Positions 31,651-31,776 of a stretch of 64,000 nucleotides of DNA are shown here, piece by piece. The stretch is from an uncultured Prevotella sp. (GTDB taxonomy: Bacteria > Bacteroidota > Bacteroidia > Bacteroidales > Bacteroidaceae). A program made the translations under genes and the position numbers. The notes under the pieces were generated by a model. It was not told the origin of the DNA. It did no database searches and worked only from the letters and a program-made list of their open reading frames with translations. Within the stretch, counting starts at the first letter, position 1; the number at the start of each line of letters is the position of its first letter. The stretch spans positions 15,606 through 79,605 of the forward strand of contig ONAJ01000007.1 in assembly GCA_900315775.1 (NCBI GenBank), in the 5' to 3' direction.

Positions 31651-31776
31651 GTAAACCTATGGTTTTGTCGGAGTAAACCCATGGTTTGGTCGGAGAAAAC
31701 CTATGCTTTGGTCGGAGTAAACCTATGCTTTGGTCGGAGTAAACCTATGGTTTTGTAGGAGTAAACCTACGGTTTG
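31651..31776. repeat. 22-bp tandem repeat, 5.7 copies (GTAAACCTATGGTTTTGTCGGA consensus)
   Basis: Units start at 31651, 31673, 31695, 31717, 31739 and 31761. Each holds the small palindrome AAACC-NNN-GGTTT, and five units end in GGAG. Confidence 0.95.

Follow-up and report, generated by a model that had tools for sequence, protein, structure and literature searches.

A 22-bp repeat array beside a Prevotella Fic gene lies in a dispersed inverted-repeat element homologous to small helicase cassettes

What is the role of a tandem array of small palindromic units in the DNA between two genes of an uncultured Prevotella? In the 64-kb stretch of DNA that was analysed here (hereafter the window), such an array sits in a 663-bp gap between two minus-strand genes. 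An earlier note on this DNA had offered two answers, an array of phased DNA sites that could be bound by the adjacent Fic protein, or a small RNA built as a string of hairpins that could sequester a protein in the manner of CsrB/RsmZ. The data presented in this study point to a third answer, in which the array is one part of a dispersed element and the relevant gene is found not beside the array in the window, but in homologous cassettes of other Prevotella. The features that this argument draws on are as follows.

30421 to 31464, minus strand: Fic/DOC protein with a C-terminal HTH (domain scan)
31505 to 31512, minus strand: TATATTTG, candidate -7-like box of the Fic operon, outside the element and given as context only
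31553 to 31832, unstranded: the whole dispersed element of about 279 bp, made up of left inverted repeat, box, 22-bp array and right inverted repeat (BLAST with L019, L020 and L022; seven-copy alignment)
31554 to 31604, plus strand: left arm of the terminal inverted repeat (inverted-repeat search)
31611 to 31623, plus strand: conserved ATCTTTACA box, which overlaps the -7-like TACATTTG (31616 to 31623) pointing into the array; candidate promoter
31650 to 31776, plus strand: the 22-bp array, period 22, 5.8 copies, 89% matches, no indels (Tandem Repeats Finder)
31781 to 31831, minus strand: right arm of the terminal inverted repeat (inverted-repeat search)
31846 to 31909, plus strand: second 22-bp array of three tandem hairpins AACGAG-N7/8-CTCGTT, period 22, 2.9 copies (Tandem Repeats Finder), outside the element
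32128 to 34176, minus strand: PAD_porph-domain protein (domain scan)

Three things in this picture go beyond the earlier note, namely the 51-nt inverted repeat that brackets the array, the second 22-bp array, and the fact that the whole unit is dispersed.

The tandem repeat itself is real. The consensus unit given by Tandem Repeats Finder is AGTAAACCTATGGTTTGGTCGG, and the 18-mer GGAGTAAACCTATGGTTT, which comprises GGAG and the dyad, has six in-register matches (at 31648, 31670, 31692, 31714, 31736 and 31758) compared to 0.02 expected from shuffled sequences. The AAACC-N3-GGTTT dyad was found eight times in the window against an expectation of 1.64, and six of the eight lie within the array, where the general form of the units is AAA(C/G)C-N3-G(G/C)TTT. 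The earlier note had described a mini-palindrome in every unit and a GGAG spacer between units, and both descriptions hold for most of the array: the palindrome is perfect AAACC-N3-GGTTT in four of the six units, whereas units 3 and 4 read GCTTT, and GGAG precedes five of the six units, whereas the first is preceded by AAAG. The units run head to tail without unique spacers, so the array is not a CRISPR, as had been stated before. Two properties expected of iterons are present, these being at least three direct repeats of about 17-22 bp in helical phase and adjoining AT-rich DNA; the GC content is 43-47% in the array and 18-27% in the DNA that flanks it on both sides, which consists of the inverted-repeat arms.

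The inverted repeat brackets the box and the array exactly. It is 51 nt long and 82% complementary, with 176 nt between its arms. The outer part of the left arm, TTTTTAGGATTATGGAAATTTTAATTTTCGAAAAAA, is common to other element types while its inner part, GTGTCAGTCGTCAT, is type-specific, and the right arm reads ATGACGGATGACAC, then a T-run, and ends in CCTAAAAA. The two arms differ at a fixed site, CAG(C/T)C versus CATCC, in all copies except L020. The -7 consensus of Bacteroidota promoters is TAnnTTTG, and the box that the earlier note had placed at 31616, TACATTTG, fits it; a sigma-70-type scan near the box gave a further candidate promoter, TTTACA-17-TATGCT, with 9 of 12 matches. The element has no coding capacity, the sole ORF across it being a 55-aa GTG ORF that runs through the repeats. 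At 279 bp, non-coding and with 51-nt terminal inverted repeats, it has the build of a MITE, which is short (less than about 1 kb), non-coding and bounded by such repeats.

The element also recurs at unrelated loci. When metagenome contigs were scanned with a 22-mer from the unique box region, six contigs were returned. By BLAST, the similarity of L019, L020 and L022 to the window is confined to 31552/31554 to 31832, with 82-86% identity, and their flanks and neighbouring genes are unrelated to those of the window and include no Fic gene. Copies at several unrelated sites are another property of MITEs, here observed on metagenome contigs and hence not as copies proven within one genome. In L020 and L022 the copy, which is of type 1 like that of the window, is nested inside a type-2 element, whose terminal repeat has its outer ~35 bp in common with type 1 and differs in its inner part, CATTACACATTACAC. 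No target-site duplication was seen in the flanks of the window, L019, L020, L142, L152 or L162 copies. L021 and L024 represent the window's own locus, with 89-97% identity over 23449 to 28578. Both are without 28579 to 31493, which holds the CotH and Fic genes, and in both the element, together with the 31494 to 31552 segment that carries the TATATTTG box, lies directly upstream of a 677-aa gene. Conversely, more distant Fic homologues at other loci (L011-L018, 81-89% identity) are without the array. The array is not tied to Fic, because L021 and L024 carry the element without Fic and the loci of L019, L020 and L022 have none.

Unit number differs between alleles, as a copy-number comparison proposed in the earlier note has now established: there are 6 units in the window, 5 in ten other copies (including L005, L010, L019, L020, L021 and L193-L196) and 4 in L022. 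The earlier note had accepted that an array which was only a strain-specific expansion would speak against its interpretation. This is true of the sixth unit, which is seen only in the window, and not of the array as a whole, since 4-5 units are present in 11 of 11 other alleles or copies. The orientation of the element is identical in 11 of 11 close alleles at this locus. Many contigs with this Fic gene end inside the element (L006-L009 and L197-L199), and assemblies typically break at multi-copy repeats. The DNA to the right of the element varies by strain, with PAD_porph in the window and L001 and Peptidase_S28 in others, and in L001-L003 the same site holds a relative of ~73% identity in the opposite orientation plus an AAA_14/DUF4143 gene. 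The insertion site of the element is a rearrangement hot spot, and no recombinase was found among the flanking genes scanned (26.5-40 kb). The second array is present in the same-locus alleles L001, L005, L021 and L193-195 and absent in L196. Its last hairpin is followed by T6, which makes a terminator-like site at 31890-31910; these terminator-like hairpins are absent from L019, L020, L022 and L196 and are not within the mobile unit.

Homologues of the element with a gene inside were found in other Prevotella. These cassettes are laid out as left inverted repeat, ATCTTTACA box, 22-bp array, AT-rich leader, a gene for a VapE-like/DUF3874 protein of 387-393 aa, and right inverted repeat. In L118, a Prevotella MAG found as a reference-genome match (the same locus as L142-L151), type-2 terminal repeats lie 1.5 kb apart. 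Between them are a five-unit 22-bp array, AGTAAAGCTATGGTTTGGACGG, which matches the window array at 83% identity across 105 nt, and, past an AT-rich leader of ~110 bp that separates array from gene, a 387-aa gene with VapE-like, DUF5906 and DUF3874 domains (Pfam). In L152-L161 the protein is 63% identical and it is the window's own inner repeat that brackets the gene, in the form GTGTCAGCCGTCAT to the left of it and ATGACGGCTGACAC to the right. The VapE-like gene of L152 encodes 393 aa and has the ATCTTTACA box and a 22-bp array upstream. The window's left arm and box are 77% identical to the L152 left end over 66 nt, and its right arm is 84% identical over 55 nt to the L152 right end, which comes immediately after the helicase stop codon. 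The L152 box keeps ATCTTTACA but then reads AATCG, not TTTG, and no TAnnTTTG is found in the parent cassettes. In L162 a 69% identical protein is found in a different neighbourhood, together with a 22-bp array and an inner repeat of a third kind, CATTCCACATTCCAC. L168 encodes a 669-aa form that includes a BT4734-like primase domain and is accompanied by inverted repeats of 21 nt and arrays of 20-21 bp. The protein identities of the array-bearing lineages to the L118/P0121 query are 53-69%, and the repeat sequences have diverged. The inner inverted repeats are tandem heptamers. In two homologues that are further removed, L165 and L171, both the inverted repeats and the array are absent.

The helicase is the only gene found inside the inverted repeats, and inspection of the cassettes and their neighbourhoods revealed neither a transposase nor a recombinase gene. 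A MITE should have a transposase-encoding relative with the same ends, whereas the sole gene of the relatives L152, L142 and L162 is the VapE-like helicase; the label MITE-like is used here because the gene-bearing relatives encode this helicase and not a transposase. Since its arms and box are of the L152 type and its array is of the L142 type, the window element corresponds to a cassette minus leader and gene. A cognate initiator beside the repeats, which is a further property of iterons, has a candidate in L142/L118, L152, L162 and L168 and none in the window, where tblastn found neither a VapE-like nor an AAA_14 gene in the whole 64 kb. The P0121 helicase and the window's Fic co-occur in sample ERZ27297848, although a shared assembly was not found.

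The cassette gene product is predicted to be a D5/SaPI-Rep-type self-loading replicative helicase with a C-terminal winged-helix-like domain. PHROGs place the protein in DNA helicase and DNA primase families, and its sole PDB relative by sequence is 7PDS (SaPI1 Rep1 with DNA), with an identity of only ~17%. The AlphaFold2 model (pLDDT 85) has 7PDS as its best structural match (E 2e-17, TM 0.63), followed by NrS-1 helicase, ASFV PrimPol, vaccinia D5 and SaPI5 PriRep (7OLA), and in this model residues 313-384, the DUF3874 region, follow the order H-E-H-H-E-E, a winged-helix-like pattern. The C-terminal domains are 34-41% identical compared to 71-78% for the helicase core, a fast divergence such as a specificity domain would show. 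Array type was compared with C-terminal similarity in three lineages only and did not follow it: P0143 and P0145, which have the same unit type, have C-termini that are no closer to one another. SaPI Reps are self-loading helicases that use a C-terminal winged helix to bind iterons; these iterons adjoin rep, occur in both orientations and surround AT-rich DNA (PMC9371898). For VirE/VapE ATPases that are fused to primases, a role as the replication helicases of mobile elements has been predicted (PMC5862659).

Arrays of this kind are widespread. When genomes were scanned for pairs of neighbouring dyads spaced 22 bp apart, with the AAACC/GSTTT core required, at least 117 loci were found; conservation of the core among scan matches is not evidence, because the genome and viral scans both required it. 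The matches listed are nearly all from Prevotella/Prevotellaceae, and single genomes have numerous loci, P. falsenii DSM 22864 contributing at least 20 and MAG RGIG4852 at least 12. In P. falsenii the arrays lie within a ~210-bp conserved element that has inverted TCTTTAC-type motifs at both ends, and ATCTTTACA is also present in both of these ends. Among the matches listed, 85 of the 90 arrays with at least three units (94%) are intergenic versus 19% for random placement, and the orientation of neighbouring genes shows no bias. A VapE-like gene lies within 8 kb at 2 of the 117 loci listed, so most array copies are gene-less. The same pattern was found on 19 viral contigs, and at 11 of 11 inspected loci an ORF of ~170-270 aa has the dyads in its central part. 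All five viral ORFs that were scanned carry DUF6291, one of them also Phg_2220_C, and one viral ORF matches the PHROG families 'replication initiation protein' and 'DnaD-like helicase loader'. Phage origins are often located inside initiator genes. Limited literature searches (DUF3874; Prevotella MITEs with tandem repeats; Prevotella iterons) turned up no description of the family.

The array is probably, though by no means surely, the inner, iteron-type block of a gene-less MITE-like derivative of a small Prevotella helicase cassette. The leader and gene are missing from the window copy, in which the array stands directly between the two arms. The units would be phased dyad sites, two helical turns apart and with AT-rich flanks, that is, iterons in the origin or operator sense, and they would serve as binding sites for the winged-helix domain of the cassette helicase. 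We infer this step from array to helicase from adjacency and by analogy. Any binder would have to act in trans, because the window encodes no VapE-like gene, and the window units may be orphan sites that are bound by a cognate helicase encoded elsewhere, or they may be a decaying relic; units would be gained and lost by slippage or unequal exchange. In L001 and L152 the units occur in both orientations, which resembles the iterons of SaPI origins and is unlike a directional RNA. The suggestion in the earlier note that these are phased dyad sites like iterons is strengthened as an idea about DNA, but not with Fic as the binder.

Some further observations bear on the iteron reading. Counting against it are the SaPI iterons, which are 5-6 bp and downstream of rep while the units here are 22 bp and upstream; the absence of repeats and array in L165 and L171, and a helicase at only 2 of the 117 loci listed; and inverted repeats around a replication gene without a transposase, a recombinase or a target-site duplication. 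Counting for it are the similar 22-bp-spaced dyads inside viral DUF6291/Phg_2220_C initiator-like genes. A more far-reaching proposal, which we consider distinctly unlikely, is that the 1.5-2.5-kb cassettes represent a class of minimal mobile replicons not described before and that the dispersed gene-less copies are orphan chromosomal origins. Such a replicon would consist of a ~50-bp inverted repeat, a phased 20-22-bp dyad array, a SaPI-Rep/D5-like winged-helix helicase and the second inverted repeat, and the helicase could fire or handcuff the orphan origins in trans, or be titrated by them. Given the viral dyads in DUF6291 genes, chromosomal arrays might also act as decoys for the replication initiators of phages or satellites.

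The small RNA reading supposes a plus-strand transcript of ~280 nt, structured or acting as a sponge, that runs from the TACATTTG box at 31616 through the array to a terminator at 31890-31913. There is indeed a -7-like box upstream and a terminator-like hairpin with T6 downstream, the 286-nt plus strand folds better than shuffled sequences (z = -5.2), and BrickBuilt elements of P. gingivalis are transcribed, with one termed an sRNA (PMC4596501). However, the minus strand also folds well (z = -4.0), and a fold that is stable on both strands is what palindromic DNA would be expected to give. At the gathering threshold Rfam found only a tRNA in the whole window, and a permissive search of 31400-32200 produced nothing better than an unrelated Enterococcus sRNA at an E-value of 0.17. 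In the 63 homologous units compared, dyad pairs 1-3 and 5 never vary and pair 4-10 is C:G in 34, C:C in 21 and G:G in 8, which leaves the mini-hairpin intact in 34 and broken in 29 of the 63, with no compensated variant. This toggling fits a degenerate position of a DNA-binding site, or drift, rather than a selected RNA hairpin. A perfect unit folds at about -6 kcal/mol while a GCTTT unit forms no hairpin, and adjacent units pair preferentially with each other, as they do in the MFE fold. RNAs of the CsrB/RsmZ type should have covariation-supported hairpins, of which the 63 units gave none, and GGA motifs in the loops, whereas the loops here are UAU, CAU or UAC and GGAG is in the stem flanks; Bacteroidota generally lack CsrA. 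Furthermore, the terminator is outside the mobile unit and missing in L019, L020, L022 and L196, and the parent cassettes have a box that departs from TAnnTTTG. The small RNA is thus quite improbable, and its mini-hairpins were rejected as RNA structures on account of absent covariation and weak or alternative folding. Control of the Fic-CotH operon by cooperative binding of the Fic protein to the array is more improbable still. The array does lie ~140-270 bp upstream of the Fic -7-like box, and the winged helix that the earlier note had ascribed to Fic was borne out by C-terminal HTH_IclR/HTH_DeoR matches at residues 289-338. This reading was nevertheless rejected, since the element occurs without Fic both at this locus (L021 and L024) and elsewhere (L019, L020 and L022), the Fic homologues L011-L018 are without the array, and the Fic promoter segment is outside the element. 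A similarly slim chance is given to an inverton, in which a recombinase would flip the 176-bp segment and turn its internal promoter toward the terminator or toward Fic. Long inverted repeats bracket a promoter-like box, contigs break here, and in the diverged allele L001-L003 (~73% identity) the box and array are inverted between the same outer flanks. The common orientation of all 11 close alleles, on which the inverton was rejected, is a weak negative because assemblies report the majority orientation. The fixed difference between the arms in all copies but L020 argues against frequent exchange within them, the parent cassettes have the same repeats around a whole gene plus its upstream region, an arrangement in which inversion would make no obvious sense, and the flanking genes scanned over 26.5-40 kb include no recombinase.

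Two other explanations accept the dispersed element and differ about its array. The array could be a neutral minisatellite within a MITE, in which units without a sequence-specific role come and go by slippage and affect neighbours only incidentally, through AT-rich arms, stray promoters or hairpins. We regard this as unlikely, but as deserving serious weight. The unit number of 4, 5 or 6 and the uncompensated G/C toggling in the dyad agree with it, copies at different loci are 82-86% identical and therefore old, and among the matches listed the 94% intergenic placement without bias in neighbour orientation is as passive insertions would be; the same proposal has been made for BrickBuilt in P. 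gingivalis (PMC4596501). However, the 22-bp phase and the A3/T3 arms are kept in 63 of 63 units while a single position toggles, and similar phased dyads are found in phage initiator genes. In addition, array, helicase and inverted repeats share one layout across lineages with protein identities of 53-69% to the L118/P0121 query and with diverged repeats, which argues that the array was retained for a reason. Alternatively, the units could be subterminal sites for a transposase or recombinase that moves the element by acting on the inverted repeats, so that the array would serve mobility and not replication. The element is dispersed and nested (type 1 inside type 2 in L020 and L022), and the tandem heptamers of the inner inverted repeats look like a design for protein binding. 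The TnsB and MuA sites in the ends of Tn7 and Mu are 22 bp, the same length as the units here. Against this stand an array at one end only, searches in and beside the cassettes that found no transposase or recombinase gene, flanks in which no target-site duplication was seen, and the helicase as the sole gene that the inverted repeats have been found to enclose; this explanation is improbable.

For the annotation of the window, these data argue for labelling the array as a component of a dispersed repeat element, and not as a regulator of Fic or an sRNA gene. More generally, 22-bp-period dyad arrays are a very common intergenic repeat in Prevotellaceae (at least 117 loci), and such repeats break metagenome assemblies at exactly these sites. 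If the link to the helicase is true, DUF3874 would gain a function, as a winged helix that binds origins, a minimal replication module bracketed by inverted repeats would be known from a major genus of gut and rumen, and the cassettes would offer candidate pairs of origin and initiator for Prevotella vectors, which are scarce.

Several known systems share parts of this design. The lambda origin (inside gene O) and R6K (22-bp iterons) consist of four to seven phased dyad repeats of ~19-22 bp beside AT-rich DNA and an initiator gene, and the array is like them in its phased repeats of similar length, internal dyad symmetry and AT-rich DNA. However, the lambda O and R6K pi initiators are unrelated to VapE-like helicases, and these origins are single-copy per replicon while the element here is dispersed. 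Correia elements (CREE) of Neisseria are likewise short, bounded by inverted repeats, intergenic and dispersed, and can supply promoters or hairpins, but they have no internal tandem array, duplicate a TA target and have no helicase-bearing relatives. The SaPI origins are closer to the gene-bearing cassettes, in that SaPI1 Rep1 (7PDS) is the best fold match of the cassette protein and SaPI5 PriRep (7OLA) is also matched, both proteins have a C-terminal winged-helix-type domain (predicted in the cassette protein), and in each case a helicase gene is adjoined by AT-rich DNA and by repeats that occur in either orientation. They differ in that SaPI iterons are 5-6 bp, 6-12 in number and downstream of rep, whereas the units here are 22 bp and upstream (PMC9371898), and in that SaPIs are 15-kb phage satellites with an integrase, compared to a 1.5-kb cassette or a 0.28-kb gene-less remnant. 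BrickBuilt is an intergenic, non-coding, dispersed MITE of P. gingivalis with a 23-nt minisatellite (Klein et al. 2015; PMC4596501). Membership in BrickBuilt was rejected, because its IS5-like terminal repeat GAGACCTTTGCA could not be matched anywhere in the window even when one mismatch was allowed, and its unit is 23 nt and not 22 nt. It further differs in genus and, it would seem, in unit sequence, the text of that paper not printing the 23-mer; in its 12-nt terminal repeats with distinct leader and tail, compared to a 51-nt inverted repeat here; and in its presumed parent, an element with an IS5-family transposase, where the relatives here carry a VapE-like helicase and no transposase. Both belong to Bacteroidota and are intergenic, non-coding and dispersed, and both have a spacer-less internal minisatellite between unique ends that bear inverted repeats, a copy number that varies by strain, no Rfam match, predicted stem-loops and promoter-like sequences. 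Among the systems described so far, the BrickBuilt MITE of Porphyromonas gingivalis is the closest analogue of the element, which stands beside it as an analogue and not as a member.

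The site of the inverted-repeat-bounded element is a rearrangement hot spot among strains. Relative to strains L021 and L024, which carry alleles of the same locus, window 28579-31493 is an insertion or deletion that contains the paired genes Fic and CotH as well as a CGAGATG heptamer repeat, and in both of these strains the promoter-bearing segment (window 31494-31552) directly adjoins a 677-aa gene. In some other strains the site holds a diverged element in inverted orientation, along with a gene for an AAA_14/DUF4143 ATPase (L001, positions 2461-3717; also L002-L004). The right-hand neighbour beyond ~31921 also varies, with Peptidase_S28 replacing PAD_porph in other strains. 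To the right of the element lies a second array with a 22-bp period:

31846-31909: three tandem hairpins, AACGAG-N7/8-CTCGTT, with T6 after the last hairpin

The number and sequence of these hairpins differ among strains; the matching array has an additional fourth hairpin of different sequence in alleles L193-L195, and there are zero hairpins at the counterpart in L196.

Tandem repeats of other kinds were also seen in the window. Heptanucleotide repeats of 4-7 copies each, with the units GGTTAGA, TCTAAAC, AGAGGTT, GAATTAT, CGAGATG, TAGTTGA and AATAGTA, were found at seven sites, and a 10-bp unit forms one further array:

9250-9319: heptamer repeat
12375-12416: heptamer repeat
23408-23447: heptamer repeat
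28628-28661: heptamer repeat
41888-41925: heptamer repeat
54819-54867: heptamer repeat
61640-61685: heptamer repeat, between convergent genes
5261-5341: eight tandem copies of TTCCTAGGCG, each unit containing the palindrome CCTAGG

At most of the seven sites the heptamer repeat almost exactly fills a short spacer between neighbouring same-strand genes, and heptamer repeats in gene spacers are a recurrent pattern in the window. The 10-bp array is preceded by a T-run and is located between two minus-strand genes.

Similar 22-bp arrays were found in other genomes. Prevotella falsenii DSM 22864, a single isolate genome, has at least 20 copies of a conserved dispersed element of ~210 bp (loci L029, L036, L041 and L042 and about 20 further loci), which has inverted TCTTTAC motifs at its ends and holds a four-unit array of the GCAAAACCTACGGTTTTGC type. 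Several contigs (L026, L093, L099, L102 and L116) of a MAG that bears the label Flexilinea sp., Chloroflexota, have very similar four-unit arrays of period 22 (GGAAACCGATGGTTTCC). These arrays may form a family of their own, or the contigs may belong to Prevotellaceae and have been mis-binned. The VapE-like/DUF3874 genes of Prevotella (cassettes L142-L161 and homologue loci L165-L170) usually belong to a conserved cluster. Its other members are a Peptidase_M15_3 gene, a short ORF of 65-69 aa that is rich in Cys, and a gene for an HU-HIG DNA-binding protein, the last in variable position and orientation.

Among IMG/VR contigs (L174-L192), phage DUF6291/Phg_2220_C genes, which are replication-initiator-like, contain AAACC-N3-GGTTT dyads spaced 22 bp apart in their middle part. 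The dyads are often followed by repeats with a unit of six or seven nucleotides, for example AATGTA. The dyad arrays inside these initiator-like genes are probably phage origins.
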